NCBI GenBank assembly: GCA_019326865.1 | Contig: GCA_019326865.1_4101.1 | Reading direction: 5' to 3' (one strand) | Length of the DNA: 64,000 nucleotides | Origin: a phage | Part shown: piece by piece, positions 7,712 to 55,377 of the stretch | How the letters are laid out: every line of letters begins with the position of its first letter | Numbering within the stretch: position 1 is the first letter of the stretch | Notes under the pieces: generated by a model | The model's database searches: none | What the model saw: the letters and a program-made list of their open reading frames with translations, nothing else | What the model was told of the DNA's origin: nothing | Made by a program: the position numbers and the translations under genes

Positions 7712-7744
7712 CCCTTTATATTAATTTTAAAGGGTTATAACACA

Positions 7745-9040: not shown

Positions 9041-9437
9041 AATTATGCAACGCTGTCTTATTGACAAATACGGGATATATGGATATCGTTTAAGTGCTCC
9101 TATTGACAAAAATAAAACAACCTATGTAAGTTATAATGCTGTACAAGGGTTTGATATATTCATTAGTACTAATTATCAAATCAAACAAGCTAAAGATGTG
9201 TCTATAATGACCCCTGATGAGTTATTTCAGTACAGCTTAGTTCTTCCTACATGTATCGATTTACAACGTCTAGGAGCGATACAGAAGGTTTTACGCGAAC
9301 ATAAAGTACAACCCAATAAAGTCACGCACATTCCAGAAACAATCTTCAAAACTATAGAAGTAGAAACCCCTGATTATATGTTAAGTGATGATGAATTCTA
9401 CGAGAAGCACTTCCCTGGTAAAGTTTGGAGAGACTAA
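9024..9437 (+). CDS. hypothetical protein, FamA
   Basis: 137 aa; GAGG RBS; 'TPDELFQYSLVLP'. Confidence 0.55.
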   Translation: MLEMIKIMQRCLIDKYGIYGYRLSAPIDKNKTTYVSYNAVQGFDIFISTNYQIKQAKDVSIMTPDELFQYSLVLPTCIDLQRLGAIQKVLREHKVQPNKVTHIPETIFKTIEVETPDYMLSDDEFYEKHFPGKVWRD

Positions 9438-9919: not shown

Positions 9920-10445
9920 GAATGTAAAATGCATCACTGACATTTGTATAAAATTAATGAAAATTTTCATTAACCCAAAATACAAGACTCGTTCTTTACG
10001 TCATAATATTGATGAGCATTGTACCATTAATATCCTAGGTAGTATTCTTGATGTAAAATATGATGGTAAACTGTTATTCGGTATAAGAGAAGAGAAAATG
10101 GATGATGCATTCTTTTCTTGTAAAGATAAATTTGAACCTTCTGATTATAAAGTAATTATTCGTGATGATAGCATCTATATTAGTAGTGATTATTCAAATT
10201 ACTTCGATAAAATATACACTGAAAACGTTGATTACCATTATGAAATGCTAGATTTACCAGTAACAGACATTGATATGGAGAGAATCAAATTTTCATTATC
10301 AGATAATGAGTACTTAGGTATACAAACATATTATTCACTACAAGGAAAGATTCCACCTGCTATGTATATAAGGATTGAGATTGGTAATGTATTCAATGAT
10401 AAGGTTATATCAATTGCTGATAAAATATTGAGGGTTGAATTATGA
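9903..10445 (+). CDS. hypothetical protein
   Basis: 180 aa ORF in array, no clear FamA motif. Confidence 0.5.
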   Translation: MYIENENVKCITDICIKLMKIFINPKYKTRSLRHNIDEHCTINILGSILDVKYDGKLLFGIREEKMDDAFFSCKDKFEPSDYKVIIRDDSIYISSDYSNYFDKIYTENVDYHYEMLDLPVTDIDMERIKFSLSDNEYLGIQTYYSLQGKIPPAMYIRIEIGNVFNDKVISIADKILRVEL

Positions 10446-11005
10446 ATGGCCATGATTACCAATTCCATAGACTAGAATTTAGACACTGTGTTGCATATGC
10501 AAAAACATTAATGTGCATCATTGACACTCTTTCATCCGAACAATTTCGTAAGGATAATGATTTATTGCTGAAAAAAGGTCGTATAACATCATCCGATATC
10601 GGTATTGAACTATTTGTTGAAATCAGTGTTGATACCGGAGACAGTACAAGGGCTGGTTGTATAGGTCATATTGGCACACATTGTTTCACATGGAATCCAA
10701 ATACAAGTCAAGTTAGAATTGATTATAGAAATTCACGTTGGGTTGATCTTAGTACTGAATCAGATTTAGAATCAGTTATGTTCCAGCTAAGTTTAATTCA
10801 CGATCCTAATGAACTTCTTTATATTATTACTTTCAGTTATCTGTTACAAAACTACGATAGTCCATCAGGGTTTTTCATAGAATCAGATATAGATGAAATT
10901 ATGGAAGAGATTCCTAGTTTAAAGAATATTCTGGAAGAAAAAGATTTCTATAAGGACTTCAGAGATTTATACGACATGCACTTGGAGTTATTTAAGAATG
11001 GATAA
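10442..11005 (+). CDS. hypothetical protein, FamA
   Basis: 187 aa; 'LESVMFQLSLIHDPNELLYIITFSY'. Confidence 0.6.
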   Translation: MNGHDYQFHRLEFRHCVAYAKTLMCIIDTLSSEQFRKDNDLLLKKGRITSSDIGIELFVEISVDTGDSTRAGCIGHIGTHCFTWNPNTSQVRIDYRNSRWVDLSTESDLESVMFQLSLIHDPNELLYIITFSYLLQNYDSPSGFFIESDIDEIMEEIPSLKNILEEKDFYKDFRDLYDMHLELFKNG

Positions 11006-11516
11006 AGATGATATTCTAATTAGACTAGTTCAGAGTTTGATAAAGTTCGCAAATAATGATATCAATACATACAAAGTAGGTGATATTGAATTCAAATCAT
11101 TTGGTATGTACGGTGATGACGAAACATATTATGCTTCAATGAAATTTCAAGAATTTCACGAGATGTTAATATCGTTATCATACGAAGATGTTGACCCAAG
11201 ATGGAGTTCCAGTATTTCACTATCGAGAATGGTAATTCGTAGTAAGCATCGTTACATTTCGTCAAAGAATACTCCTAACTTGATTAATATTGTGTTGAAT
11301 GAAAATACAAACCCCCTATCTAAATATGATATCGTACCTTTAACCGATGAAGCAATTTTTCAATTGAGTACCATTTGTGATGAAGATGTGATATCATGTA
11401 TGAAAATTTATGAGAAAGTTGGGGGTGATATTCCCATGAACTATTACCTAACTATAGATGAAACGTATCTCCAAGATGATGTTCTGGCGTACATTGACAG
11501 TGTTTTACCAAAATAA
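10998..11516 (+). CDS. hypothetical protein, FamA
   Basis: 172 aa; 'TDEAIFQLSTICDEDV'; followed by terminator. Confidence 0.6.
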   Translation: MDKDDILIRLVQSLIKFANNDINTYKVGDIEFKSFGMYGDDETYYASMKFQEFHEMLISLSYEDVDPRWSSSISLSRMVIRSKHRYISSKNTPNLINIVLNENTNPLSKYDIVPLTDEAIFQLSTICDEDVISCMKIYEKVGGDIPMNYYLTIDETYLQDDVLAYIDSVLPK

Positions 11517-11540
11517 AGACCCGTTATGGGTCTTTTTGTG
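11516..11540 (+). terminator. rho-independent terminator
   Basis: GACCC-GTTAT-GGGTC hairpin then TTTTTGTGTTT. Confidence 0.7.
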
Positions 11541-11548
11541 TTTATGGC

Positions 11549-11577
11549 TTTACAAGAGCATTCAGGTGTGTTATACT
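11549..11577 (+). promoter_or_regulatory. T4-early-like promoter (TTTACA-17-TGTTATACT)
   Basis: between terminator 11516-11540 and CDS 11593. Confidence 0.45.
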
Positions 11578-11592
11578 TGATTTCAAATAGAG

Positions 11593-12168
11593 TTGGAGGA
11601 ATCTATGAGTACTGAATTAATTAAAGAAGTTACCTTACTTCTGAAGCATTGTTTTAAGTTCATTCCTGATACTGGTTCACGCCAGTACATTAAAGTTAAT
11701 GAGAAATATAACATCAATATCCTTGTATCTGAAACTGCGAGCAGCTATGCTAACATTGAGTTGGATTCTGAAGAAAAATATACAGTATTACAAATCATAG
11801 CAGATGTACAACGTAAACAAGATTATCGTTCTTCATTTGACAACGATTATCTGTGTGTTTGCTCAAACTTCAGTGAGAATAAAATTGTGTATAAGAATTT
11901 ATACACACATGAAGTGATTGATACATATAATTATAAAATTTCATCTGATGAATACAATGTGCTAATGTTCAACGCAAACCTTTTGTATGATGCCAGTACT
12001 GTACGCTGTTTAGAGTTAGCATATAAAATTCCAAAGATCATGGAAAGAAAAGATTTGATTCACTTTAAAACTATTTTAAAATACAGTACAAAAGAATTAG
12101 AAGATTTAGTACAGGCTCTTAAGAATTTCATTAATGAACATGTACCTGTTAAATTAGAGGACTTATAA
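11593..12168 (+). CDS. hypothetical protein
   Basis: 191 aa; GGAGG RBS; promoter-like element upstream. Confidence 0.55.
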   Translation: MEESMSTELIKEVTLLLKHCFKFIPDTGSRQYIKVNEKYNINILVSETASSYANIELDSEEKYTVLQIIADVQRKQDYRSSFDNDYLCVCSNFSENKIVYKNLYTHEVIDTYNYKISSDEYNVLMFNANLLYDASTVRCLELAYKIPKIMERKDLIHFKTILKYSTKELEDLVQALKNFINEHVPVKLEDL

Positions 12169-12752
12169 TGCAAGTTGAACACATTCAAATTATGAAATTG
12201 ATGCATGACATTGCGGAACTATCTGATAAGTACGATATTACTGTTCATGAGCCTATTGGAAATTATCGACTTAAAATTGAAAACAAATCACCACATCGTT
12301 TTGGTTCTGTAACTCTTGAATATTATAAAGTTTACGGTTATGAAACGGCAAAAAAAGGTTTCTGGGATACTATGGCAATGTATATCCGTACATCAAGACG
12401 TAGAGAACAAATCGGTTCAATCACGCCACATATGATATTTGTCAATGCTGTACACAGTGATATTAATCGAATTGTTGAATCTAATTTTGGTGACGTTGAG
12501 AACGATACATATTTAGAAATTCCACCAGAACTAGATCAATGTGAAGACATTCGTGAAGCATACATTTTCCAGAGATCATTACTTGACAACTTCAATGAGT
12601 TTGAGTACTTGATGCTTTGCTATGAAACTGCAAAAGCTATTAAGACTGGTGAATTGGTAATGTATAATAATTTCATTAACTGCAAATCCGATACACTTAA
12701 AGAGTTACACACTGCCATAAAAAACATCAAGGATACATATGAACGCTTATAG
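12168..12752 (+). CDS. hypothetical protein, FamA-like
   Basis: 194 aa; 'REAYIFQRSLLDN'. Confidence 0.55.
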   Translation: MQVEHIQIMKLMHDIAELSDKYDITVHEPIGNYRLKIENKSPHRFGSVTLEYYKVYGYETAKKGFWDTMAMYIRTSRRREQIGSITPHMIFVNAVHSDINRIVESNFGDVENDTYLEIPPELDQCEDIREAYIFQRSLLDNFNEFEYLMLCYETAKAIKTGELVMYNNFINCKSDTLKELHTAIKNIKDTYERL

Positions 12753-13317
12753 TTACATGACAGAACGTCATCAGATATTATATGATATCAGTACTAAAAT
12801 GTTATCAATTGTTAGTAGTGCGAAAGAAATTGAAAAACAATACCTCATCCGTGATGTAGCAATTTCATCTAAATGTTGGTCCAATGAATATTACGATCAT
12901 GGTATTCTTACTATTTCTGGGGCTAGAAATATTTGTATTGTAAAAAATAAGAAAAAATGCAATGAAGAGTGTGAGATTAGAACCGATATACAAATTAAGG
13001 ATGATGGAAGTTTTTCACACCACCCATTCCATATTAGTACTGTTGGTGTTTTATATAATATTAAAGTACTATTCGGTGATGAAGAGTATGTGTTAAAAGC
13101 TATCAATCCAGAATCAAGTACAGTTGAAGAAGAACTGTTCCAGATGAGCACGGTTATACCTGAAGAGGTTCTTAGTACTGTTATTTTTTGTAGTTTAATT
13201 TATCATGAATACAAAAAGAACCAGTTCGATTTCCACATGTTAGGAACGTACATCTTCAATAATTTGAGCGTAGATCGTTTAAAAGCATTAAATTCAGCGA
13301 TGGATAAGGTTCTATAA
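12739..13317 (+). CDS. hypothetical protein, FamA
   Basis: 192 aa; 'VEEELFQMSTVIPEEVL'. Confidence 0.6.
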   Translation: MNAYSYMTERHQILYDISTKMLSIVSSAKEIEKQYLIRDVAISSKCWSNEYYDHGILTISGARNICIVKNKKKCNEECEIRTDIQIKDDGSFSHHPFHISTVGVLYNIKVLFGDEEYVLKAINPESSTVEEELFQMSTVIPEEVLSTVIFCSLIYHEYKKNQFDFHMLGTYIFNNLSVDRLKALNSAMDKVL

Positions 13318-13745
13318 TGACAAGAGATGATTGTTTGTACATATGGGATGTAGTTGAAAATACACTTTCAAATCCAGAAAATTATAAAACACAAAAAAGA
13401 CAGCGACACAAAACATGGATAGATTTGTTCGTTGAGGACATACATGCAGTGACTATTTGGGATTCACCGAGGGCATCAGCATCTACTCTATTGGACAATG
13501 AATGCATTGATTGCATTAATTCCACTTTTCATCTACACGGTTCTACAATTTTTGGTACATTTCTGGATATTGAAAATAAAGATGATATTGATTCACTTGC
13601 GTTACAATATCAAGTACTGTATAATACTAAATTAATTTACGATTTAGTACTAGCTTCTTATGTGTATAAATTAATGATGAAATATAATCACATTTCAGTA
13701 TCAGTTTATACCAAGGATATTCTTTCATTAAGAGACAAAACATGA
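13317..13745 (+). CDS. hypothetical protein
   Basis: 142 aa ORF, ATGA-type junctions. Confidence 0.5.
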   Translation: MTRDDCLYIWDVVENTLSNPENYKTQKRQRHKTWIDLFVEDIHAVTIWDSPRASASTLLDNECIDCINSTFHLHGSTIFGTFLDIENKDDIDSLALQYQVLYNTKLIYDLVLASYVYKLMMKYNHISVSVYTKDILSLRDKT

Positions 13746-14251
13746 GTTTATTAAATGCACGAGAATTAGTTGAGATGTATGAGATCTTATCTTCATATAA
13801 AAATTCCCCAAAAGATGTAATTCTCAACAAAAAGTTCCATGTCAATGTTGATCATATGAAAAATATAGATATGATTTCTTTAGTGGAAAGTAGTAAATCG
13901 GGTCTTGAGCGTGATATCATGCGTTTGATTTATATTACCAAACCATCATATACTAATGATAGTTCAATTAGTAATGAGACATTTTTGTACACTCCTTATA
14001 CTGATTGTACTTTAGTTTCAGTGTCTAATCAGAAACAAGATACTATCCAATTCATCAATACCAGTACTGATAACATTGAAGAAAATGAATTCCAAAACAA
14101 TACATTAAGTTCATGTAGTAGTGTTATAACCTTTATGTCATATCTGTGGTCAATAAAATCAAATGCAATTGTATATAGTTCTAATTACACACAAGATAGT
14201 ATTGTTGAATCATATAAAGCTCTGAAGGAATACTATGAAAATAACAAATGA
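13742..14251 (+). CDS. hypothetical protein, FamA-like
   Basis: 169 aa; 'MSLLNARELVEMYE', 'IEENEFQNNTLSS'. Confidence 0.55.
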   Translation: MSLLNARELVEMYEILSSYKNSPKDVILNKKFHVNVDHMKNIDMISLVESSKSGLERDIMRLIYITKPSYTNDSSISNETFLYTPYTDCTLVSVSNQKQDTIQFINTSTDNIEENEFQNNTLSSCSSVITFMSYLWSIKSNAIVYSSNYTQDSIVESYKALKEYYENNK

Positions 14252-14816
14252 TTTTTTTAAATGTTTAGTACACCCTATGCTGAGTGTTATGAAAAAATTA
14301 CAGAATCTACCGGAAGACAACGATTACAAGTTTAATCGTTTTGATTCAGATGTATTTTGTATTGAAATTGAAATGAATAATAATCGTAATTTGCATTTAA
14401 AATTCAAAGAATCGTCAAGTCCGTATTACAACTTTGATATGAATTTTAAAATAGATACTGACATTGAAGAAAACGTAATATCAAATCATACTAGCAAAAA
14501 TGGTTTTAAGCATAGAACTACTATGTACAATAATAAAAATAGTATTATATCTAAATGGTTTCACCAATTCACCAAAATTGGTGAAATTGAATATAGTGAT
14601 TTTGGTGAAGAGCAATACTTTCAGTTGAGTACAATTCATGAACTTCCACCATATGATTATGTTAAAACATGGTTTGATATTCATAATATAATTGATGATG
14701 CAATCAAACTTCCATTTGGGGTATCAATATCATATACTGCTCCTAAAACATTTGTTTTTACGGAAGATATGATTATGAAAAAGATATGGGCAATTATCCC
14801 ACTTATGATGGATTAA
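14235..14816 (+). CDS. hypothetical protein, FamA
   Basis: 193 aa; 'GEEQYFQLSTIHELPPYDY'; terminator downstream. Confidence 0.6.
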   Translation: MKITNDFFKCLVHPMLSVMKKLQNLPEDNDYKFNRFDSDVFCIEIEMNNNRNLHLKFKESSSPYYNFDMNFKIDTDIEENVISNHTSKNGFKHRTTMYNNKNSIISKWFHQFTKIGEIEYSDFGEEQYFQLSTIHELPPYDYVKTWFDIHNIIDDAIKLPFGVSISYTAPKTFVFTEDMIMKKIWAIIPLMMD

Positions 14817-14820
14817 ATTT

Positions 14821-14848
14821 ATACCAGGGGTTGACTCTGGTATTTTTG
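14821..14848 (+). terminator. rho-independent terminator
   Basis: ATACCAG...CTGGTAT stem, 9-nt loop, TTTT. Confidence 0.55.
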
Positions 14849-14877
14849 TATGATACATTATCCTAAAGGAGAATTTT

Positions 14878-15429
14878 ATGAACTACAATCATGATCTTTT
14901 TACATTATGTGCATCAAAATGTGTTGATGGTTGGGCAGATAAAATCAATACCATAATTCATCGATATCTCGTCTTTAGTTCCCGTGCACGAAGTGAGGGG
15001 GCTATGGATTTCAAATATACACTATCTATTGATGGTGTAACTATCCATGCAGACGAAGAACGTCTGAGCATTAATTTGTATGATTCCTGTGTATTTGCTA
15101 TTCACCAAAAGATGGGGAAAGGATGGGGTTGTAATAACATTAACTCCAAAGCTATCTTTTGGGTTGGTCACCATCAGACAGTACTTGATCCTTCAATTAA
15201 ATCTAATCTTTTATCCGATAATATGGTTTATGATTTATTGTACTCCGAAGAACAACATTTTCAATTAAGTACATTGCATGATCTGGCACAGTACGAGGAT
15301 TGTTACAAAACATTAGAACTATGCCATTCCCTTGAACTCAAAGATAAATTGATACAAGTTTACCCTTCATTCTTTCATGAAGAAGTACAATGCACACTAG
15401 AACATATTTTATATGGGTACGACAAATGA
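14878..15429 (+). CDS. hypothetical protein, FamA
   Basis: 183 aa; AGGAG RBS; 'SEEQHFQLSTLHDLAQYED'. Confidence 0.6.
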   Translation: MNYNHDLFTLCASKCVDGWADKINTIIHRYLVFSSRARSEGAMDFKYTLSIDGVTIHADEERLSINLYDSCVFAIHQKMGKGWGCNNINSKAIFWVGHHQTVLDPSIKSNLLSDNMVYDLLYSEEQHFQLSTLHDLAQYEDCYKTLELCHSLELKDKLIQVYPSFFHEEVQCTLEHILYGYDK

Positions 15430-16028
15430 GAAAAAGTTATCAAAAAACTATTGACCTAATTAGAGAAGTTATTAAAGTGGCTCCTGGTGCGATAGCATTC
15501 AAGAAGTCCCTATATAAAAAGTATGGCTCCATGTCAAATATGTGTTGTCAAAAGAAACGTAGTAAATTCACTACGCAGTACTGGCATGATTCTATTATTC
15601 TTAGTAATGAACATCATCGTATTTTAACAATCGAATCAGTAGATAATCAATATGGTGAAGGAATGATTTGTGTACCTGATTATGATGAAATTAACTTCAA
15701 CTGCGGTGATTTTGAAACAACATTATTACTTCACGAGGGTTATCCAGAAGGTGATGTATTAGCTGAGTACAATCCAAAAACTAAAATTCTCAAAAGAGGA
15801 ATCCAGTTCACTATTAATAACAAAGATGATGTTGAAGCAGCACTAATGCAACTGAGTACAAGTGAACCTATTACTATTAGTGTAGAAGAGTTATGGGGAA
15901 TTATTTCAGTACTTAATGAGTGCTACAAAGTAAAATCATTACGTAATCACACCCTTATATTGCATACTAATATAGCACATATAAAATGTAAGCACATTCA
16001 AGAAATGGCGGTTCCAGATGGACTTTAA
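15426..16028 (+). CDS. hypothetical protein
   Basis: ATGA overlap start at 15426; weak motif 'AALMQLSTSEP'. Confidence 0.5.
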   Translation: MRKSYQKTIDLIREVIKVAPGAIAFKKSLYKKYGSMSNMCCQKKRSKFTTQYWHDSIILSNEHHRILTIESVDNQYGEGMICVPDYDEINFNCGDFETTLLLHEGYPEGDVLAEYNPKTKILKRGIQFTINNKDDVEAALMQLSTSEPITISVEELWGIISVLNECYKVKSLRNHTLILHTNIAHIKCKHIQEMAVPDGL

Positions 16029-16611
16029 AGAAATTGAAAGTAAATTAAAGTACTTCAAAGATATCAAACTTCTTTGGGAAAAGTATAAAATTGATTACAA
16101 ATTCAGTGATGATGAGACAATAAAATCCATTGATATTAATATCAAAATCAAGTTCAAGAATAATAATTATGGTGAAGTAAGCTTAAATCATACTGGTGTA
16201 TCACTCAGGGACTATGATGGTTCAACACTCGCATATTTCGACTTCATTCCAGAACCAGGTGAAACACTACTTAGTGAGATAAATTCCTATGATATGGAAA
16301 TATTCGGCGGGAATCCGTTACTGTTCCGACTGTCCGAAGAGTGGAGTGAAGAATACTACACTTACAAAGATGGTGTAGTACTTGACATTCATGGAGAAGT
16401 TGTGAATGACTTGGAAGAACGTTTGTTCCAAGAATTGTGTGTTTCAAATACTTCATATGCATACAATCATATCCTTGACATGTTTGATTTATATAGTAAA
16501 ATAGATGCTGAAATGAATGCACATGGTATTCATTACCTTACAATTAACGACTATGCACAACTCGAAACCGCTGTGACAGCATTGTCTAAAGTACTGAAAA
16601 TAGGAACGTAA
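16018..16611 (+). CDS. hypothetical protein, FamA-like
   Basis: 197 aa; 'EERLFQELCVSN'. Confidence 0.5.
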   Translation: MDFKEIESKLKYFKDIKLLWEKYKIDYKFSDDETIKSIDINIKIKFKNNNYGEVSLNHTGVSLRDYDGSTLAYFDFIPEPGETLLSEINSYDMEIFGGNPLLFRLSEEWSEEYYTYKDGVVLDIHGEVVNDLEERLFQELCVSNTSYAYNHILDMFDLYSKIDAEMNAHGIHYLTINDYAQLETAVTALSKVLKIGT

Positions 16612-16612
16612 T

Positions 16613-17026
16613 ATGAAACTGTACCATGCGAGTACTGTAAAAATTGATAACTTTTATATCCCGTATGGTGGTCTACATATGGGAGGCAAACACAGTGCTT
16701 TGGAAGCTGCATTACGCAAGCTGAGAAGCCCACTGAACGTCGTAGACGCATGTACAGTATACTTGCATACCTTAGAAGTTGATGTTGATAACGTGCTTCT
16801 GTGTGAAGATTTAGGCAGTGATGATGAGTGGCGTTCACTTATTGAGAATTGCACTGTTCAAGGATATGATGCTGTTCAGTACAAAAATGATTACGAGCCA
16901 GACAATGTTCCTAGTTATATGATTTGGGATGCATCTAAAGTTCGTATAGTTGAAGTTGATGCTATGCATATGGATGATGCTGAAATGATTATCGAAGATT
17001 TTCTTGATGAATATGAAGGTGTATAA
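16613..17026 (+). CDS. hypothetical protein (locally GC-richer)
   Basis: 137 aa ORF; composition visibly GC-richer than neighbours. Confidence 0.5.
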   Translation: MKLYHASTVKIDNFYIPYGGLHMGGKHSALEAALRKLRSPLNVVDACTVYLHTLEVDVDNVLLCEDLGSDDEWRSLIENCTVQGYDAVQYKNDYEPDNVPSYMIWDASKVRIVEVDAMHMDDAEMIIEDFLDEYEGV

Positions 17027-17562
17027 TGTCTGACCCGATGGTAGCACTGGCACGTACTAAATTACTATTAAAGATTGGTGAGATATTCACAGATCTTCTG
17101 TGCAATAAAATTGATATTACCGATCTAGATATTAAGCAACCGTGGGAAGTGACTATGTTCTCGGCGTTCCACCGATTGTCATATAAAGGTGAAAGTGTTC
17201 TTGATTTTAACCCCAAAGCAAAATTCATAGATTATGCCGCGTTGTACCGAGCGTTGCACAAAAATAGTTATTCAGGTTGTATAACCAATAACTTTGAACG
17301 AATTCAAGTTCAAACAGCATCACATGAGTTCAATGATTTACTCTATCCAGAATTTAATCTAACTGAAGAATTACTATTTCAGTACTCGTTAATTCTTACA
17401 AATCTCGAAACGCTAGAGTACTACAAAGAGTTAGTAGATATTTTTATGAATACACGACTTTCAAAAGATATTGTGATATTCTGGTATACAGAGCATATTA
17501 CAGAGGAATTGCTTAATGAATTTCTTCTAAATATGACAGCTATAAAGGAGAAGTTATGTTAG
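17026..17562 (+). CDS. hypothetical protein, FamA
   Basis: 178 aa; 'TEELLFQYSLILTN'. Confidence 0.55.
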   Translation: MSDPMVALARTKLLLKIGEIFTDLLCNKIDITDLDIKQPWEVTMFSAFHRLSYKGESVLDFNPKAKFIDYAALYRALHKNSYSGCITNNFERIQVQTASHEFNDLLYPEFNLTEELLFQYSLILTNLETLEYYKELVDIFMNTRLSKDIVIFWYTEHITEELLNEFLLNMTAIKEKLC

Positions 17563-18029
17563 ATATTTTAGGAAACATCGATACTGCAAATTATTTTATC
17601 CAAGACGCACTATTTAATACACTACAAAAAGGTTTAGAAGTTCGTTACAACGTATATCAAGGTGATGGATATTTTGTTGATATTCTAGAAACACGTAAAA
17701 ATACATTTAATGTTAACATTACGACGTTTGGAAGACAGAACATTGCACGAATTTTAGTAAGTAAAGATGAAATAGTACTGAGATACAGTGCTAAGTTTAT
17801 GTTGACGTACAAGAAAAAAACAGACATGTTCAGTACTAATTTATTTGATGAACCATTTGACCTTGTAGATATTGAAGCTACTTTCTTTACTCAAAGTACT
17901 ATGGTAAAATACACTGATGTTCAATTTTCATCAGACGTTATGTCTGAAACATTACAAATGATCAAGGTATTATTTTATGCATTTGAGCAATTCAGAGAAG
18001 AAAGAAACAAGGTTAACAACCACAGATGA
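17556..18029 (+). CDS. hypothetical protein
   Basis: 157 aa; degenerate motif 'ATFFTQSTMV'. Confidence 0.5.
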   Translation: MLDILGNIDTANYFIQDALFNTLQKGLEVRYNVYQGDGYFVDILETRKNTFNVNITTFGRQNIARILVSKDEIVLRYSAKFMLTYKKKTDMFSTNLFDEPFDLVDIEATFFTQSTMVKYTDVQFSSDVMSETLQMIKVLFYAFEQFREERNKVNNHR

Positions 18030-18390
18030 ACTAATAGAGGCGATCACTAAGGAGTCAAAATACCACAAAGGGATTCGTCTATATTTTATAGATCTTGGTT
18101 CAATGGACGGCATATACATTTATGGTTCACAATCTTTATCTTATGATGTAATGCCAAAAAAATATGTAAAAATCTTTTTAGGGTCAAATAAGAAAACTTT
18201 CTTGACAATTAATGATAAAAACGTTATTATGAATTCTTTGGGTCATGATAAAGTGAAAATTGATCTAAACACGCTGGATGATATTGATTTTTTTCAATAC
18301 GAATGTTTAGGTGTTGACTTACATGGAATCAGTAGTGATATGATAAAATCATTAATCAAATATTTCGAAGGCGTTCATAAATGTATCTAA
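17977..18390 (+). CDS. hypothetical protein
   Basis: 137 aa; 'DIDFFQYECLG'; 53 nt overlap, start uncertain. Confidence 0.45.
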   Translation: MHLSNSEKKETRLTTTDELIEAITKESKYHKGIRLYFIDLGSMDGIYIYGSQSLSYDVMPKKYVKIFLGSNKKTFLTINDKNVIMNSLGHDKVKIDLNTLDDIDFFQYECLGVDLHGISSDMIKSLIKYFEGVHKCI

Positions 18391-18887
18391 CTAAATCGAT
18401 GAAAAATTCATTTGATAAAATCAAGAGTTGTCTTGATGGAGAGAATATTACAAGTGTTACACAATCTGCTGACCAAATTCAATGCAGTTCAAGTGATTGT
18501 ACTGTTATTTTGGGTTTACATAGTCTGCGTTTGTCAATAGTAAATAATATTGACAACACTGCTATTGTAATCACACCGTGCAATATTCAAAATGAGAATG
18601 GTGTATATCTTCATCACATGGGAACCGCATTTTATATTTTCAATACAAACAATACACTCGAAACAATCGTTAAGGAATATAATACACTTAACATTGATCC
18701 TGGTGAGTTATTTCAGATGAGTACGTTGTATTCATGTGATTTTACTGATACCTCACGTATTTTACCATTTTTCTTGGAAATTTTAAAGAAAATGGATAAT
18801 TTAAATCGTCAATACAATAAAAAAATGGTTCCAGAAGCTATATTAAATATTACTGATGCTATGGAAAAATATAAAGCAGTGCCTTAA
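18381..18887 (+). CDS. hypothetical protein, FamA
   Basis: 168 aa; 'DPGELFQMSTLYS'. Confidence 0.55.
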   Translation: MYLTKSMKNSFDKIKSCLDGENITSVTQSADQIQCSSSDCTVILGLHSLRLSIVNNIDNTAIVITPCNIQNENGVYLHHMGTAFYIFNTNNTLETIVKEYNTLNIDPGELFQMSTLYSCDFTDTSRILPFFLEILKKMDNLNRQYNKKMVPEAILNITDAMEKYKAVP

Positions 18888-18930
18888 TAAAAAACGCACA
18901 TGGAGTGCATATGAAGATCAAGGATAGATC

Positions 18931-19404
18931 ATGGAGATTAAAACTGTTGAAAATGGGAAAATTGATGACATTTTAGACTTGGACGCATTCAAAGTTCATG
19001 ATATAATGTTTAATGTGAAGGACATTATTCAATGTCTGTTTTTATGCAGCAAGACTATGCATGATTTTTTTCACAACCCGAATACTAATGTTTTTATACT
19101 TACAATCAGTACTGAAAACTCGTTTATCATGGGTATGCCCATGAGTACAAATGAACAGTATATTGATTGTGTTATTCGCAATAATGATTGTATTACCCCA
19201 CAATCTGAAGTTCGCAAAAAGAAAAACACTTACACAATCAAAGATGATAAAATCATGATGTGTTGCAGTAAAGGATTTATATTGGACAATTTCATCGTCA
19301 AAGATAGTTATCATGACTTTAAAATTTCCGAAAATCAATCCAATGTAGTTCTTTATGCTAGTGATATCGAAAGTTTAACAGTCAAAGATCCTAGTTTGGA
19401 GTAA
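18931..19404 (+). CDS. hypothetical protein
   Basis: 157 aa ORF. Confidence 0.5.
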   Translation: MEIKTVENGKIDDILDLDAFKVHDIMFNVKDIIQCLFLCSKTMHDFFHNPNTNVFILTISTENSFIMGMPMSTNEQYIDCVIRNNDCITPQSEVRKKKNTYTIKDDKIMMCCSKGFILDNFIVKDSYHDFKISENQSNVVLYASDIESLTVKDPSLE

Positions 19405-22446: not shown

Positions 22447-22463
22447 GACAAAATAGAAGTTAA

Positions 22464-22472
22464 TGATATAAT
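22464..22472 (+). promoter_or_regulatory. extended -10-like TGATATAAT element
   Basis: exact motif 5 nt upstream of terminator hairpin; functional status unclear. Confidence 0.25.
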
Positions 22473-22476
22473 GTGA

Positions 22477-22506
22477 GGTGACAGTATATACTGTCACCTT
22501 TTTTTA
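22477..22506 (+). terminator. rho-independent terminator (22-nt perfect palindrome)
   Basis: GGTGACAGTATATACTGTCACC then TTTTTTT. Confidence 0.8.
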
Positions 22507-23123
22507 ATCCTGAAAGGTTCCTATAAGGAAATGATTAAAAGCCTAATCCACTCGAAAATGTAGAGGGTAGATGAGTAGTCCTTTCAGTACGAACAGCAGA
22601 TGAAACCCGTTAGATGATGGCATAGTTTGAACCACTCACGGCAATGCGGCTGTATAAAGAACTCCAATAGGATAAAGAGAGTTCCTAGATAGACATATAA
22701 GGATCGCACCTTACCAATTATCTAAGGGAGATTTCATAAGAAATATGCGGTCGGAATTATACAATATAGTTGCGTCCAAATTTTGTGAAATCAAATACAA
22801 GTACTGGTCATATGGTATTTGTATTATGTGTCGGGATGTTTAAGACCGACGACCGTTGCTACAAGAACCGCGATAGAGAGAAACAGAGCAACCCGCTTTC
22901 GTCTCGTAAGAGAATTCGTGATATGAACTATGTGAAGGCCACCAGCGTCAAACTTTTTTGTTCTTTCCCCTGCGGGGGGATGAAATATGCTCAAGCAAAC
23001 CTCGTCAATATTAATTAAAAGACTTTATAATACTTGTAGAATTGTACATGCACCGCATGGAGAATTCTACTGATGTTGATGTAATCAACATCACGTATAT
23101 TCATTGATGTTTCCATAGGAATA
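22507..23123 (+). other. GC-enriched non-coding island (candidate structured RNA or foreign remnant)
   Basis: no convincing ORF; sampled 60-nt lines 42-48 percent GC vs about 27-33 percent in flanking genes; bounded by terminator and palindrome. Confidence 0.4.
23071..23093. repeat. perfect inverted repeat TGATGTTGAT-gta-ATCAACATCA
   Basis: 10-bp arms, 3-nt spacer, 30 nt upstream of CDS 23124; no T-run. Confidence 0.6.
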
Positions 23124-46631: not shown

Positions 46632-46885
46632 CAGTAATAATTATTATTGCTTTTCTAATAACAGTGTTTTTTATTTTTATGTTATATATAGTTGCTATGG
46701 ATGAACCTAATAGTTCTTTTAGAAATTATGAAGTTCGTTTTTCTGCACAAAATAATAAGTACTATATTGTAAACTGTGTACATTGTAGTGAGAAAAAGGT
46801 AACTGGTAGGTTTGGGTTTACAATTTATTATAAAGATCGAGTAGAAGCTGATATGGTTTGTCAAAAACTTAACACAGTAGAATAA
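46628..46885 (+). CDS. small membrane protein
   Basis: 85 aa; N-terminal TM 'VIIIIAFLITVFFIFMLYIVAM'; bidirectional terminator follows. Confidence 0.5.
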   Translation: MTVIIIIAFLITVFFIFMLYIVAMDEPNSSFRNYEVRFSAQNNKYYIVNCVHCSEKKVTGRFGFTIYYKDRVEADMVCQKLNTVE

Positions 46886-46912
46886 AAAAAGGAGCCGCAT
46901 GGCTCCTTTTTT
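46884..46912. terminator. bidirectional rho-independent terminator
   Basis: AAAAAAA-GGAGCC-GCAT-GGCTCC-TTTTTT between convergent genes. Confidence 0.75.
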
Positions 46913-47111
46913 ATGTTTTTACGTAAGATGTATAGATCATTATGTAATTTGATTTTGTTAATCATATACATAGTACAAAAACCTTCAACATCTGCTTTTT
47001 CATCTTTCAATTTAATGAAGAAAGTATCATCTCTTAGACTTTCATCTGAATTTTCGATACTATCAATAGAAAAAGGAAGTCTTCCGGTTAATGTAATTAT
47101 TCTTCTCTAAG

Positions 47112-47135
47112 GAAAGTGCATGATAATTATCATGC
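47112..47135. repeat. 24-bp perfect palindrome AGTGCATGATAATTATCATGCACT
   Basis: 17 nt downstream of the stop of minus-strand gene 47152-49824. Confidence 0.6.
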
Positions 47136-47151
47136 ACTATATTATTAAAAA

Positions 47152-49824
47152 TTACGCACTGATTGTTACAGTTGCAGTATCTTTTTTATTACCATCCACA
47201 GTAGTCACTGTAATGATTACAGAACCTTCTTCTAGAGCAGTTACTAATCCATCATCACTAATAGATACTTTAGTAGGTTCATCTGCACTATAAGTTACTG
47301 ATTTGTTAGTTGCTTTAGCTGGAAGAACTTCAGGAACTAGTTGAACTGTTTTAGTTCCTGATAGTGAAAGTTCAGTAGTTTTAGGTGTTAAACTAACACT
47401 GGATACTGGAACTGGAATATTAACGATTACTGATGTTTGACCAGTAACATCACTACCATCAGCGGCAGTAGCGATAATATTTGCAGTACCATTAGTTAGT
47501 GCAGTTACGATACCAGTATTAGCATCTACTTTAGCAATTTCTGGAGCACTGGATGACCAAATTACTTTTTTATTGGTTGCATTACTTGGGGTAATTGCAG
47601 CAGTCATCTGTTTAGTTGCATTCAATGTAGTCAAAGTTTGATCTTTAGGAGTTACATCAATTGCAGTTACTGGCACTGGAATATTAACAGTAATAACACC
47701 TTGACCTGTTTTACCACTTCCATCAGCAGCAGTTGCGATAATGTTTGCAGAACCGTTAGTTAACGCAGTTACAACACCAGTACTAGCATCTACTTTCGCT
47801 ACAGCAGGTTTACTGGAAGACCATGTTACAGATTTATTTGTTGCGTTAGTTGGAAGAACTTCAGCAGCCATTGCTTGAGTTGCGTTAACAGCAGTCAATG
47901 TTTTAGTTGCTGGAGTAACATTAATAGATGCGACTGGAACTGGAATTGCTACAGTTACCGCACATTTTGCAGTTTTTGCTCCATCAGCAGTTGTTACTGT
48001 GATATCAGCAGTGCCATTTGCTACAGCAGTGATTAAACCAGTTGGACTAACAGTTGCCACTCCATCAGCAGAAGTACTATAAGTTACTGCTTTGTTGGTA
48101 GCATTAGGTGGTAGTACAGTTGGTGTTAGTTGTTGAGTATCACCGACTGAAGTTAATTTAGCACTTGTTGGAGATACTGATACACTTGCAACAGGAACTG
48201 GAATATTAACATTTACCACGCAAACTTTAGTAAATCCACCATCAGATGTGGTTGCTGTAATATTTGCAGTACCGTTTGCAACAGCAGTGATTAAACCAGT
48301 TGGACTTACCGTTGCGACACCCTCAGCAGAAGTAGTGTATGAAATATCTTTACGACGAGCGTTATCTGGAATAACAGATGCAGTTAGTTGTTGAGTAGCA
48401 CCTACAGAAGTTAGGGTTGCTGTCAACGGAGTCATATTAATACCAGTTACTGGGATCGTTACATCAATCACTGATTCAGCAGTTTTAGCACCATCATCAG
48501 TGGTAACAGTAATAGTTGTAGTACCGTTATCAACCGAAGTTACTAGACCAGTATTACTAACTTTTGCCACGTCTGGATATGAAGAAACATATGAAACTGC
48601 TTTATTGGATGCAGTTGTAGGAGCAACGGTTGTTTCTAATTGTTTAGTATCACCTAATGTTGAGAATGTATAAGTACTAGGAGTCATAGTGACACCAGAT
48701 ACAGGTGTTTTCACAGTGATAGTAGTAGTATCAGTTTTAGCACCATCTTCGGTTGTTGCTGTAATCACCACTGTACCGTTAGCAACACCAGTTACTAGAC
48801 CAGAAGTAGGGTTAACAGTTGCTATATCAGGTGTTGCTGAAGACCACGTGACGTTTTTATTAGTTGCATCATCAGGAGATATTGTAGCAGTTAATTGTTG
48901 AGTACCGCCAACGTTAATTGTTGCAGTTTTAGGAGAAACAACAACACCACTAACTGGAGTTGTTACAGTAACAGTACATTTTGAAACAAATATGCCATCA
49001 ACAGTAGTTGCAATTACATCAGTACTACCATCTGCAACACCAGTTACCATACCAGTTGGACTTACAGTTGCGACGCGTGGTATACTAGATAACCAATTAA
49101 CACGTTTATCACTTGCATCATCGGGTGATACGGTAGCTGTTAGTTGTTGAGTTTTACCAACACTAAGAGATAGAGTTGAAGGAGAAACAACAACACCACT
49201 AACTGGAGTTGTTACGGTAAATGCACAAACATCCGTGAAACCACCATCATGAGTAGTAACTGTTACATTTGCGTTACCATTAGCACGGGCAATTGCTAAA
49301 CCAGTTTGAGCATCAACTTCAACTATTGTTGGAGCAGAGGAACTATAACTTACTGTTTTATCATTTGCATAATCTGGATCAATTGTAGCTGATAGCTGTT
49401 GTGTACTACCAACTTTAAGTGCTACTACTTTAGGTGAAATAATTACACCATCAACTGGAGTAGTATAATCACGTTTAACCACACGACCATTGTTCAATTT
49501 AATAATACGACCCATATAAAGAGTAGTATATCCTTTACTAATCCCATCATCTACATAAATCATGAATGAATTGTCTTGAACCATATTAATTGCGTCTACT
49601 GGTTTAACGGAATTTGGAATGTCGATACCACGGGTATCATACCAACACATGGAAACTTTGTAATAGATATCACCATTATCATTTATGAGATCATAAACGT
49701 TACTGGAACGTTGACGGTTAATATATAAAGTTTCGGTTAACACCTTACCATCGATTTTAGCGACAGAAACTTTAATACCACCAATACCAAATGGCAATTT
49801 ACCTTCACTAGATATTGCTTTCAT
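47152..49824 (-). CDS. virion surface/decoration protein with nine Big_2 Ig-like repeats (Hoc-like or fibre-associated candidate)
   Basis: 890 aa; nine copies of 'NATNK.V.WSSS.P..A.V...G.VTA...G.A.I.AT..DG' pattern; only minus-strand gene; TATAAATA upstream. Confidence 0.8.
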   Translation of the reverse strand: MKAISSEGKLPFGIGGIKVSVAKIDGKVLTETLYINRQRSSNVYDLINDNGDIYYKVSMCWYDTRGIDIPNSVKPVDAINMVQDNSFMIYVDDGISKGYTTLYMGRIIKLNNGRVVKRDYTTPVDGVIISPKVVALKVGSTQQLSATIDPDYANDKTVSYSSSAPTIVEVDAQTGLAIARANGNANVTVTTHDGGFTDVCAFTVTTPVSGVVVSPSTLSLSVGKTQQLTATVSPDDASDKRVNWLSSIPRVATVSPTGMVTGVADGSTDVIATTVDGIFVSKCTVTVTTPVSGVVVSPKTATINVGGTQQLTATISPDDATNKNVTWSSATPDIATVNPTSGLVTGVANGTVVITATTEDGAKTDTTTITVKTPVSGVTMTPSTYTFSTLGDTKQLETTVAPTTASNKAVSYVSSYPDVAKVSNTGLVTSVDNGTTTITVTTDDGAKTAESVIDVTIPVTGINMTPLTATLTSVGATQQLTASVIPDNARRKDISYTTSAEGVATVSPTGLITAVANGTANITATTSDGGFTKVCVVNVNIPVPVASVSVSPTSAKLTSVGDTQQLTPTVLPPNATNKAVTYSTSADGVATVSPTGLITAVANGTADITVTTADGAKTAKCAVTVAIPVPVASINVTPATKTLTAVNATQAMAAEVLPTNATNKSVTWSSSKPAVAKVDASTGVVTALTNGSANIIATAADGSGKTGQGVITVNIPVPVTAIDVTPKDQTLTTLNATKQMTAAITPSNATNKKVIWSSSAPEIAKVDANTGIVTALTNGTANIIATAADGSDVTGQTSVIVNIPVPVSSVSLTPKTTELSLSGTKTVQLVPEVLPAKATNKSVTYSADEPTKVSISDDGLVTALEEGSVIITVTTVDGNKKDTATVTISA
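47155..49452 (-). repeat. intragenic tandem repeats encoding nine Big_2 Ig-like domains
   Basis: about 255 nt coding unit repeated nine times within CDS 47152-49824. Confidence 0.7.
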
Positions 49825-49860
49825 ATACTTTCCTTTATAAATTGTATTGTATTGTTATAT

Positions 49861-49868
49861 TATTTATA
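49861..49868 (-). promoter_or_regulatory. T4-type late promoter motif TATAAATA (minus strand)
   Basis: plus-strand 'tatttata' 37-44 nt upstream of minus-strand start 49824; AAGGAAAG RBS between. Confidence 0.5.
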
Positions 49869-50136
49869 TTATAACAAAATTATTTTAGTATTAAAAAGGA
49901 GTTCTAATGTTCCTTTATATTTTAAAGGAACATACTGTGTAAATCTGGTTTGGTCAGGTAAATCTTTCGGAGAGAAGGAAGTAGTGAATGACATTTTATC
50001 ATTAAAATCATCTCCTTACCTTTAAAATAGAATTGTAAACTGCCTCCTAATATGATACCATAGTTCAAATGGTAAATCAATGAACTTAACAAAAAAAACA
50101 CTTGATACTACAGTCATAATTGTTCAGTTTTTGTGC

Positions 50137-53937: not shown

Positions 53938-55377
53938 ATGAAAAAATATACAATTGACACAAACGTACTACTATCTGATCCAAATGCGTCTGTTGCTTTT
54001 GATGGTGCTGCAATCATTCTACCATTTACAGTACTGGAAGAATTGGATTCGATTAAGAGTCGCAATGTTGATGTTTCACGTGATGCTCGTGTTGCGATTC
54101 GTAACATTGAAGCAATTATTGCAGAGGCATCACATAATGAGATTAGTTGTACTGGTGTTAATATTGCTGATGTTCATACCAATATGAATCCTGATAGCAA
54201 ATTGTTTGTTATTACAACCGAAGAAGCTGAGGCACTAATTCGTACTAAAGGTTCAGACGAGAAAGTTCAAACCCTTCTTAAAAGTACTGTACCTGATGAT
54301 AAAATTATTCTGGTTGCTTTAGCAACCGAATCAGTACTGGTAACTCGTGATATCAACATGCGTATCAAAGCACTAAGTTATGGTGTCGAGGTACAAGACT
54401 ATCGTCATGATATTGTTATTGGTGATAGTGATTTGATGCACATTGGTCAACATCATTTGGAACTCAATTTTTGGGATGTATATAGCAATTTAGCAAATAC
54501 AAATATTAAAACTGAACAAATTGGTCGTCGATTGTATCATTACATTCCTAAAAGCTTGATTGGTCATTTACTTCCACAAAATCTATGCATTGGTGATTAT
54601 CTATATGATGATGCTGATGTATTATTTGTATATGAAGGCCAATCAGCCATTGAGGAAGATGATGGCACACTAACACCAGAAGATATTTTGGTATTCCAAG
54701 ACATTGGTCAATCTGTAGCTTTGCGTGCTAAAGTATGGGATATTAAAGCAAAGAATATTCAACAAGCACTTGCAATCAACAGTATTCTCGATCCTGATGT
54801 ACACCTAACAGTGCTGCTAGGTTCTGCTGGAACTGGCAAAACATTAATTACGATTGCTACTGCACTAGAGTTAGTACTGGAAAAACGCAAATACGACCGT
54901 ATTATCTTCTCTAAAACACAAGATTCACAGTTTGAAGATATAGGATTCTTGCCAGGTTCTGAGACAGAGAAAGTTATCCCATTCTGTGGACCTGCAATTG
55001 ATGCTCTTGAGTATCTTCATAAAGATGATGTATCACCACAAGGTAGCATCGAAGAGATTCTCAAACGTAACGTGATGCAATTTAAAGCATTGAACTTTAT
55101 TCGTGGTCGTTCTTTTGCCAATACAATTCTAATTGTGGATGAAGCACAGAACTTAACACCAGCCCAGTTAAAAACTGTCTTGACAAGAGCCGGAGAAAAC
55201 TGTAAAGTAATCATACTTGGTAACCTAGCACAGATTGATAACAAGTTTATCAGTCCAGTAAACAGTGGTTTGACATATGTAACTGAAAAATTCAAGGATT
55301 GGAGTGGTTGTCGTATCATTGAATTAGAAGGTGTTGTTCGTTCACCACTTGCTGAATTTGCTGAAGAAAATATGTAA
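53938..55377 (+). CDS. phoH: PhoH-like ATPase with N-terminal PIN domain
   Basis: PIN 'YTIDTNVLLSDP'; Walker A 'GSAGTGKT'; Walker B 'LIVDEAQN'. Confidence 0.85.
   Translation: MKKYTIDTNVLLSDPNASVAFDGAAIILPFTVLEELDSIKSRNVDVSRDARVAIRNIEAIIAEASHNEISCTGVNIADVHTNMNPDSKLFVITTEEAEALIRTKGSDEKVQTLLKSTVPDDKIILVALATESVLVTRDINMRIKALSYGVEVQDYRHDIVIGDSDLMHIGQHHLELNFWDVYSNLANTNIKTEQIGRRLYHYIPKSLIGHLLPQNLCIGDYLYDDADVLFVYEGQSAIEEDDGTLTPEDILVFQDIGQSVALRAKVWDIKAKNIQQALAINSILDPDVHLTVLLGSAGTGKTLITIATALELVLEKRKYDRIIFSKTQDSQFEDIGFLPGSETEKVIPFCGPAIDALEYLHKDDVSPQGSIEEILKRNVMQFKALNFIRGRSFANTILIVDEAQNLTPAQLKTVLTRAGENCKVIILGNLAQIDNKFISPVNSGLTYVTEKFKDWSGCRIIELEGVVRSPLAEFAEENM

Follow-up and report, generated by a model that had tools for sequence, protein, structure and literature searches.

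Gene anatomy and immediate surroundings

A single long gene on the minus strand of a 64,000-nucleotide stretch of phage DNA, hereafter the window, encodes an 890-residue protein built mostly of immunoglobulin-like repeats, raising the question of whether its product belongs to the virion and, if so, where it is attached. The features that bear on this question are collected in Table 1. The protein proved to be real but fairly ordinary: it belongs to a family whose members have been detected in the virions of related phages, and stands out by its unusual length. The sequence-only reading had pictured a late virion surface protein with an anchor and an Ig array, probably a decoration adhesin, and this core proposal is supported by the presence of orthologues in virions and by the late-promoter motif.

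Table 1 Features of the minus-strand locus and its flanks (window coordinates).
Feature	Position	Strand	Remarks
Bidirectional intrinsic terminator	46885..46912	both	12-bp stem and 4-nt loop, flanked by an A-run and a T-run
Decayed second N-domain paralogue (A4_463 type)	46913..47098	minus	Start codon lost, ~53 codons deleted internally
24-bp perfect palindrome AGTGCATGATAATTATCATGCACT	47115..47138	both	14 nt past stop codon
Coding sequence	47152..49824	minus	From ORF listing; ATG start, 890 aa + stop codon
Nine Big_2 Ig-like domains	47155..49461	minus	aa 122-890; Pfam PF02368, 9 stretches
N-terminal domain, putative virion anchor	49462..49824	minus	aa 1-121
Ribosome-binding site AAGGAAAG	49828..49835	minus	Read from sequence; 3 nt before ATG
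TATAAATA, T4-type late promoter core	49861..49868	minus	Last base 37 nt before ATG
Upstream ORF remnant (A4_465 type)	49929..50003	minus	tblastn 72% identity, 25 aa; upstream of late promoter

The Pfam Big_2 family matched the protein with 453.9 bits (E = 2.5e-139; gathering cut-off, 22.8 bits), and the division between non-Big_2 part and repeats agrees with the previously proposed N-terminal domain of about 120 aa followed by nine Big_2 units. The boundaries of the repeats are at aa 122, 206, 289, 373, 457, 541, 627, 715 and 803, with short Pro-containing linkers (TPVSGV or IPVPV) connecting the domains. Pairwise identities of 33–67% at the protein level and around 65% at the DNA level ruled out both a recent repeat expansion and slippage-prone repeats. 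The strong ribosome-binding site that had been claimed was present, and its sequence is unchanged in phages UE-S1, ph0011 and A4.

As had been reported, the window contains no other credible gene on the minus strand: the four other minus-strand ORFs that reach 100 aa or more are each contained in a longer plus-strand ORF, and minus-strand ORFs outside plus-strand ORFs span only 41–59 aa. The gene is not strictly alone, however, as decayed minus-strand paralogue remnants lie on both flanks. The downstream remnant matched A4_463 by tblastn with 77.6% identity over 49 aa (46918–47064), and DNA alignment showed that ph0011 shares the deletion and that UE-S1 has a different one. A plus-strand ORF at 46913–47110 is antisense to this decayed paralogue and was ruled out as a gene. 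At the upstream site, A4_466 in A4 and gp472 in 121Q are further truncated N-domain paralogues.

Two inverted repeats follow the gene. The perfect palindrome exists as described, although it had been placed 3 nt away, at 47112–47135. In the mRNA it is predicted to fold into a hairpin (10-bp stem, 4-nt loop; RNA fold centroid −13.3 kcal/mol, z = −4.5), and the window holds two perfect 24-bp palindromes, compared with about 0.015 expected (an estimate from base composition). It is present with one mismatch in UE-S1 and A4, and in A4 it separates A4_464 from an intact gene further downstream, A4_463. The palindrome is unlikely to terminate the present gene on its own, given the weak U-tract after it (UUUCCUU) and the intact gene that it precedes in A4. 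The bidirectional terminator said to separate the convergent plus-strand genes from the minus-strand unit was found as a hairpin with a T-run; it folds with −20.7 kcal/mol on the plus strand and −17.2 kcal/mol on the minus strand (z about −6) and is conserved in relatives.

A Rak2-like jumbo phage and its conserved locus

The sequence-only reading had implicitly taken T4 as its frame, which was mistaken: the phage is an Asteriusvirus-like (Rak2-like) jumbo coliphage and not of the T4 type. The protein is 98% identical (868/890) to WAE77065.1 of ph0011, and a search of public assemblies for exactly this 890-aa sequence returned no record. The gene order, consisting of a dCMP deaminase gene, a small ORF and then the putative decoration gene on the opposite strand, recurs in Asteriusvirus, Alcyoneusvirus, Mimasvirus and Eneladusvirus; an opposite-strand gene stands beside dCMP deaminase in 121Q, phAPEC6, A4, UE-S1, ph0011, RaK2, CBB, GAP32, BF, fHe-Yen9-04, Munch and EJP2. 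The N-terminal domain gave tblastn matches in 57 phage records, nearly all of them Rak2-like jumbo genomes. The phage search gave no match in phiKp24, and the published structure of that phage showed no separate decoration protein.

Within this group the protein shares a homologous N-terminal domain (26–38% identity) with RaK2 gp496, CBB_112, GAP32_111, phAPEC6 gp347 and 121Q gp471 (phrog_33171); tblastn E values against the RaK2 gp496 family reached 4e-12, and a profile matched all members. This family, described as the 'conserved virion protein with Ig-like domain' of Rak2-like jumbo phages, occupies the same position on the opposite strand and, as here, has a late-promoter-like motif upstream in most members. 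The difference is one of length, since the RaK2 gp496 family has 0–2 Big_2 domains in 125–303 aa and the present protein nine in 890 aa. Across relatives the Big_2 count takes the values 0, 1, 2, 6, 7 and 9, and the expanded array is shared only with ph0011 (9), A4 (7) and UE-S1 (6), whose proteins are all labelled 'hypothetical protein'; papers on UE-S1, fEgEco12 and A4 contain no discussion of this protein. The nine-domain array is the largest Big_2 array among the relatives compared, and the same-genus coliphages 121Q, PBECO4 and phAPEC6 have zero Big_2 domains. Close relatives lose or reorder whole modules: among the window, UE-S1 and A4 the distal domain R9 is best conserved (90–92%), and internal modules come and go.

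A late-promoter motif precedes the gene

The TATAAATA motif reported 37–44 nt 5' of the ATG is at that position. There is 1 copy on either strand of the 64 kb, compared with 13.9 ± 3.7 expected from shuffles, and its ATAAATA core is avoided about tenfold in the window (4 observed, 42–48 expected). Both the sequence of TATAAATA and its spacing are kept in UE-S1, ph0011 and A4. In a 50-kb structural region of phAPEC6, all six TATAAATA copies lie 17–48 nt before gene starts, including those of the major capsid and scaffold protein genes. Because the motif precedes these genes in phAPEC6, late expression is well supported by sequence comparison, with TATAAATA behaving as a late promoter would in this group of phages. 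In the phAPEC6 and 121Q orthologues the motif stands around 140–190 nt upstream rather than 37 nt, and the exact motif is absent from the 90 nt upstream of RaK2 gp496, indicating that promoter architecture is not uniform in the family. The CBB paper predicted ATAAATA late promoters and reported a gp55-like sigma factor (CBB_244); in phAPEC6, gp237c carries the annotation of a late sigma factor, and the window holds no gp55-like sigma gene. In the present phage, transcription would start late from the T4-type TATAAATA promoter, presumably read by a phage gp55-like sigma factor, and the transcript would pass the hairpin beyond the stop codon and end at the bidirectional terminator.

Orthologues are present in purified virions

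Absence from virions, which had been named as one observation that would speak against a surface role, is not what published mass spectrometry of orthologues shows, with three phages positive. phAPEC6 gp347, which consists of the N-terminal domain only (14.1 kDa), was detected in purified virions with 8 peptides and 75.2% coverage, compared with 74.9% for the capsid protein and 68% for the sheath, high sequence coverage being only a rough proxy for copy number. Purified virions also contained CBB_112 (4 peptides, 24.3% coverage) and RaK2 gp496 (4 peptides, 22.2% coverage). These virion data cover phAPEC6 gp347, CBB_112 and RaK2 gp496, members of the family with 0–2 Big_2 domains.

The N-terminal domain as a likely anchor

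The N-terminal domain was matched over aa 1–113 by phrog_33171, a 'virion structural protein' family (E = 3.3e-16), and this family and phrog_10468, the other match to the domain, are both placed in the 'head and packaging' category. Orthologues from four genera align with the domain and share invariant P11, F12, G16, A22, R39, D45 and L46. The model comprises a conserved disordered arm (aa 1 to about 10) followed by two small SH3/Tudor-like beta-barrels (AF2 pLDDT 83), and fold searches in BFVD matched orthologues with TM up to 0.83. The predicted structure treats the domain and the first repeat as independent, with pLDDT >90 for the first repeat and a low-confidence hinge between them. No PDB relative of the domain was found, phmmer giving only spurious OspA repeat matches and a profile search none. 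In an index of 5.8 billion proteins, a single-sequence search with the domain recovered two fragments only, and matches were obtained once aligned phage orthologues served as the query.

The domain is N-terminal in all 98 family representatives, where it is joined to Big_2 arrays, Big_1/Invasin_D3 domains, HYDIN-type Ig domains or nothing. Since it is conserved, always N-terminal and has same-position orthologues in purified virions, it is likely the virion anchor, with the Big_2 array as displayed cargo.

A probable surface decoration protein

Together, these data suggest that the gene probably encodes a non-essential late surface decoration protein, in which the N-terminal domain anchors a nine-Ig stalk, most likely to the capsid. 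The N-terminal 121 aa would fix the protein to the virion, presumably at high copy number. By analogy with T4 Hoc and T5 pb10, the most likely site would be the capsid surface, for example hexamer centres. Such a placement is in keeping with the phAPEC6 cryo-EM work, in which two capsid proteins lack an assigned identity, a fibre base at the hexamer centre and a second-layer protein. The nine Big_2 domains would then project outwards as a beads-on-a-string stalk of roughly 30 nm, and weak multivalent contacts of the stalk with surface or mucus glycans may raise the chance of encountering a host.

T4 Hoc, which is dispensable, late and monomeric and combines tandem Ig domains with one non-Ig capsid-binding domain, is a likely working model here. 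It sits at capsid hexamer centres and has been implicated in adhesion, and Hoc and pb10 together are precedents for monomeric Ig-like hexamer-centre decoration with adhesion roles. The parallel is one of arrangement: the Hoc anchor is C-terminal and follows three Ig domains, whereas the anchor here would be N-terminal and precede nine, and the capsid is T=28 here but prolate in T4. No Hoc family appeared among the Pfam and PHROG matches, and the anchors showed no relation in sequence or fold. Nor was a T5 pb10-like N-terminal capsid-binding fold found in the N-terminal domain.

A bolder version of the decoration reading, which we regard as possible but rather doubtful, is that the N-terminal domain is a general plug at a fixed site of the T=28 capsid in Rak2-like jumbo phages, with freely swapped cargo. 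The plug may correspond, for example, to the hexamer-centre or second-layer density left without an assigned protein in phAPEC6. Its cargo may range from nothing through 1–9 Big_2 domains, Big_1/invasin domains and HYDIN-type Ig arrays of up to 1859 aa to a module of about 500 aa of unknown nature, and the locus may be a birth-and-death hotspot of tandem paralogues. If this were true, the capsid of the present phage would be covered by hundreds of 30-nm Ig stalks.

Alternative locations and roles

The strongest competitor to capsid decoration, which we consider unlikely, is that the N-terminal domain anchors to the tail, at sheath rings, the collar or the distal tail, so that Big_2 stalks decorate it as they do siphophage tail tubes. 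Cryo-EM of phAPEC6 revealed decoration proteins without assigned identity at two tail levels and fibre bases at three sheath rings; 'major tail protein' is the label on orthologues, and CBB_112 was filed under tail by those who described CBB, from annotation only. In PHROG the Big_2 part matched tail proteins for the most part, and PDB sequence matches include the Ig-domain tail tube protein 8hqz_p. However, the tail annotations stem from the Big_2 domain only, and T5 pb10, too, was at first wrongly assigned to the tail on account of its Ig domain. The PF02368 module is shared with the lambda gpV C-terminal domain, T5-like pb6 and invasin/intimin arrays, which gave the best PHROG and PDB matches of the repeats; the repeat module is all that siphophage tail proteins and invasin/intimin have in common with the present protein, whose anchor is unrelated to tail-tube or outer-membrane anchors. 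The two PHROG families that match the N-terminal domain itself point to the head. Peptides covered gp347 as fully as the capsid protein, which speaks slightly for a very high copy number, but the sheath, with its 150 copies, reached 68% as well.

An essential receptor-binding tail fibre that sets host range is improbable. Like many receptor-binding proteins, this one is long and repetitive, associates with the virion and varies between close relatives, and a few of its PHROG matches bear a tail fibre or host specificity label. Against this, it contains monomer-type Ig beads only, with no trimerisation, beta-helix or coiled-coil elements; 121Q, PBECO4 and phAPEC6, of the same genus, do without any Big_2; the distal R9 is the best-conserved module and the internal ones are variable; and dedicated fibre genes exist elsewhere, such as phAPEC6 gp248, gp256 and gp314.

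Even less probable is a non-virion Ig-repeat protein at the cell surface or secreted, serving for example to exclude superinfection or to interact with biofilms. Bacterial surface proteins, among them invasin and intimin, commonly carry Big_2 arrays, but the protein sequence has no signal peptide or hydrophobic N-terminus, three orthologues are in virions, and the late-promoter motif resembles that of structural genes. Finally, the tail tube 'major tail protein' of the RefSeq labels on the RaK2, CBB and GAP32 orthologues has annotation alone in its favour, and neither a tail-tube fold nor a tail-module location was found for this protein, making it the least credible reading of all.

Implications for annotation and further use

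These results provide a defensible annotation for the 'hypothetical' genes of ph0011, UE-S1 and A4 and for the mislabelled 'major tail protein' genes of RaK2, CBB and GAP32. The candidate anchor could explain unassigned surface density in cryo-EM maps of jumbo phages, and might provide a handle for display on capsids of very large size. With 0, 1, 2, 6, 7 or 9 Ig modules on one anchor among phages of E. coli and other enterobacteria, the family offers a natural series for relating stalk length to adsorption, mucus adherence and aggregation. Ig-like decoration proteins are already well known, and no general concept is changed.

Base composition of the gene

Two compositional features had been noted for the gene. 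Depletion of the CAGTACTG motif was not significant (0 observed, 1.8 expected from window density, P = 0.17), and with larger motif-free gaps elsewhere in the window it was ruled out as a sign of separate origin. The slightly higher GC content is real (38.2% in the gene, 32.8% in the window). Codon positions 1 and 2 hold all of the extra GC (0.49 and 0.51), and GC3 is 0.14, compared with a median of 0.27 in plus-strand ORFs; the higher GC is attributable to an amino-acid composition rich in Thr, Val, Ala and Ser rather than to a distinct origin. Horizontal acquisition as an explanation of the higher GC was ruled out by a GC3 below that of all neighbouring genes, a value so low that it argues against a recent foreign origin.

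A probable virion protein with a separable anchor and a variable Ig array

Behind the N-terminal domain (N-domain) of the minus-strand protein, Pfam recognises nine Big_2 stretches (453.9 bits), the architecture described by a sequence-only reading that had also placed a late promoter motif and a ribosome-binding site correctly ahead of the ATG. Its description of the gene as the only one on the minus strand stands as well, because the four other minus-strand ORFs that reach 100 aa each lie within a longer + strand ORF and those outside such ORFs encode only 41–59 aa; + strand ORFs are packed over the whole 64 kb. The 5-kb stretch around the gene matches Escherichia jumbo phages of the genus Asteriusvirus (UE-S1, 94.6%; ph0011, 94.2%; A4, 85.7%), and its flanks match PBECO4, 121Q and phAPEC6 at ~88%. 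The phage group is the Rak2-like giant myoviruses (~350 kb), not T4-type phages.

Features of the minus-strand locus and the window-wide 8-mer
Feature	Position	Strand	Remarks
CAGTACTG copies	e.g. 487, 920, 1454 ... 63305		spread over whole window
Bidirectional terminator	46885-46912	both	symmetric; A-run on one side, T-run on the other; folds well on both strands
Decayed second N-domain paralogue	46913-47098	-	between main-gene stop and terminator
Perfect 24-bp palindrome	47115-47138	both	between main gene and decayed paralogue
Main ORF	47152..49824	-	890 aa; ATG at 49824
N-terminal domain	aa 1-121	-	precedes first Big_2 boundary
Big_2 repeat starts	aa 122, 206, 289, 373, 457, 541, 627, 715, 803	-	repeat boundary analysis
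Ribosome-binding site AAGGAAAG	49835-49828	-	read from sequence
Late promoter motif TATAAATA	49868-49861	-	read from sequence; 37 nt before ATG

The N-terminal 120 aa match phrog_33171, labelled 'virion structural protein' (E = 3e-16), and a tblastn search with the N-domain matched 57 phage records, of which almost all are Rak2-like jumbo genomes. The orthologues examined all lie beside the dCMP deaminase gene, on the opposite strand. Mass spectrometry of purified virions has detected three shorter orthologues: phAPEC6 gp347 (14.1 kDa; 8 unique peptides, 75.2% coverage, compared with 74.9% for the capsid protein and 68.0% for the sheath; PMC7247149), CBB_112 (4 peptides, 24.3% coverage; PMC5259590) and RaK2 gp496 (4 peptides, 22.2% coverage, 'conserved virion protein'; PMC3622015 supplement). 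Since gp347 has no Big_2 domain, the N-domain alone is enough for incorporation, making it the likely anchor and the Ig array its cargo. The 890-aa protein belongs to the RaK2 gp496/phrog_33171 family; it resembles the Ig-like capsid decoration proteins Hoc (T4) and pb10 (T5) in its proposed way of working but lies outside both families, and the searches run detected no homology of the N-domain to their anchors. 'Major tail protein', the RefSeq label of orthologues, is a Big_2-driven mislabel that pb10 once suffered too (review PMC7602432).

Repeat number, which the earlier reading had proposed comparing, runs from zero Big_2 domains in 121Q and phAPEC6 (125 aa) through one in RaK2 (212 aa) and CBB (218 aa), two in GAP32 (303 aa), six in UE-S1 (633 aa) and seven in A4 (722 aa) to nine in the window and ph0011 (890 aa), whose protein (WAE77065.1, 98% identity) is annotated 'hypothetical protein'. 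In window numbering the order is R1-R3-R4-R5-R7-R9 in UE-S1 and R1-R3-R4-R5-R7-R6-R9 in A4; entire modules have dropped out, been added or changed places among relatives. The repeats are old: with identities of 33–67% (protein) and ~65% (DNA), they are neither a recent expansion nor an unstable one. A profile search of 1.84 billion cluster representatives returned 98 with the N-domain, N-terminal in all of them, in proteins of 102–1859 aa; where C-terminal parts were sampled, they consisted of Big_2 arrays, of Invasin_D3/Big_1 or of HYDIN/ASH-type Ig domains, or lacked a Pfam match. Members with non-Big_2 cargo (Invasin_D3/Big_1, HYDIN/ASH-type Ig) reach 1859 aa, and a sizeable group of ~600–650 aa has a C-terminal part lacking any Pfam match.

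AlphaFold2 modelled aa 1-124 (22 homologues; pLDDT 83, pTM 0.77) as two small barrels of five strands each, preceded by a disordered arm (aa 1-9). The arm, disordered in the model, is among the best-conserved parts of the family alignment, from which we infer that it may become ordered upon binding a partner. With repeat 1 included (pTM 0.52), two well-modelled domains flanked a low-confidence hinge (aa 113-117) and thus have no fixed mutual orientation. Independent orthologue models in BFVD match the N-domain (TM up to 0.83), with a weaker match in Agrobacterium jumbo phage Atu_ph07.

The sequence-only reading had proposed a capsid or fibre decoration adhesin; virion association is supported by the three orthologues, and the adhesin role would follow by analogy. 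We favour the capsid as the site because PHROG puts the N-domain matches in its 'head and packaging' category, gp347 coverage equals that of the capsid protein, and two capsid proteins in the phAPEC6 cryo-EM work, one at the hexamer centre and one in the second layer, are unassigned. The tail is an improbable site that keeps a modest share, as phAPEC6 has unassigned tail decorations too. We propose that late in infection a phage sigma factor would drive transcription from TATAAATA, that the product would bind the assembled particle through its N-domain at high copy number, and that nine Ig domains separated by short Pro-containing linkers would project outward as a stalk. Ig domains usually measure 3.5–4 nm, giving an estimated stalk of ~30 nm. 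Hoc, pb10 and N4 gp17 (review PMC7602432) suggest, as analogues, that the stalk would make weak multivalent glycan contacts and that plaques would form without it. Against the accessible literature, the separable anchor and cargo, the series from 0 to 9 modules and their shuffling between relatives, the decay of paralogues here and the promoter statistics are new; none is conceptually surprising.

Probable late expression and composition

The two strands of the window together carry a single TATAAATA, against 13.9 +/- 3.7 in dinucleotide-preserving shuffles. The motif is strongly avoided in this early/middle gene region, since the ATAAATA heptamer occurs 4 times versus 42–48 expected (order 1-3 Markov models) and, among the 256 8-mers made up of A and T alone, those that include it are the rarest. 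The single full copy precedes the window's only predicted virion-protein gene, and UE-S1, ph0011 and A4 share exactly both the motif and its distance from the gene; the orthologues of CBB, GAP32, BF, fHe-Yen9-04 and EJP2 have ATAAATA ahead of them, and phAPEC6 and 121Q each have one gene-sense TATAAATA farther upstream in the same intergenic region. Within the 50-kb structural region of phAPEC6 (140000-189999), 6/6 TATAAATA copies are intergenic, 17–48 nt ahead of gene starts (gp225c, the capsid protein; gp226c, gp232, gp234, gp238 and gp242), major capsid and scaffold genes included, and gp237c there is annotated as a late sigma factor. The CBB paper (PMC5259590) had independently predicted that Rak2-like phages use ATAAATA as a late promoter and encode a sigma factor like gp55. 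Together, these motif statistics, conservation, phAPEC6 copies, sigma factor and CBB prediction make late transcription, as first proposed, a well-supported inference, the timing being predicted.

The other ATAAATA copies lie at 55665 (+), 63892 (+) and 42291 (-), the first in a 483-nt gap after a PhoH-like gene (53938-55377); a PhoH-like protein was detected in phAPEC6 virions.

The gene is slightly GC-richer than the window (38.2% vs 32.8%), as initially noted. The excess lies wholly in codon positions 1 (0.49) and 2 (0.51), fitting a protein of 19% Thr, 14% Val, 11% Ala and 10% Ser, and GC3 (0.14) falls below the 5th percentile of + strand ORFs (0.19), which argues against a recent foreign origin. 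The supposed depletion of CAGTACTG did not hold up, because only 1.8 copies were expected (0 found, P = 0.17) and other parts of the window have longer stretches free of it. This commonest 8-mer of the window has 43 copies (~0.6 expected from base composition), and AGTACT has 165 (~22 expected). Inside coding regions it uses reading frames 1 and 2 equally (19 and 19; frame 0, 3) and no conserved flanks were found around its copies in the window, so it is a DNA-level signal, not a protein motif.

Remnants and terminators at the locus

The decayed paralogue is 77.6% identical over 49 aa to A4_463 (intact in A4, 124 aa), having lost its start codon and ~53 internal codons, a lesion that is the same in ph0011 and different in UE-S1. 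A + strand ORF (46913..47110) was rejected as a gene, being the antisense shadow of this paralogue. An A4_465-like ORF remnant lies upstream of the main-gene promoter, A4_466 and 121Q gp472 are also N-domain copies in truncated form, and fHe-Yen9-04 (record 3495-5479) and EJP2 (record 2000-3914) each carry two full paralogues here. The main gene is what survives of a small minus-strand cluster. One fHe-Yen9-04 paralogue, g095c (345 aa), has a C-terminal part without a Big_2 match.

The strong transcription stop is the bidirectional terminator (first placed at 46884-46912). The palindrome exists as described, three bases from its original placement (47112-47135), and is kept with one mismatch in UE-S1 and A4. 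In mRNA it folds into a hairpin whose stem is 10 bp long (centroid -13.3 kcal/mol, z = -4.5), and the U-tract after it is weak; we read it as a putative intercistronic hairpin that either stabilises the 3' end or acts as a leaky terminator. Another palindrome that is perfect over 24 bp, AGGTGACAGTATATACTGTCACCT (22476-22499), lies inside a 323-nt stretch without a + strand ORF (22447-22769), and positions 300-19400 hold a long series of same-strand, back-to-back ORFs (~140–200 aa) reminiscent of the related-gene arrays reported for phAPEC6.
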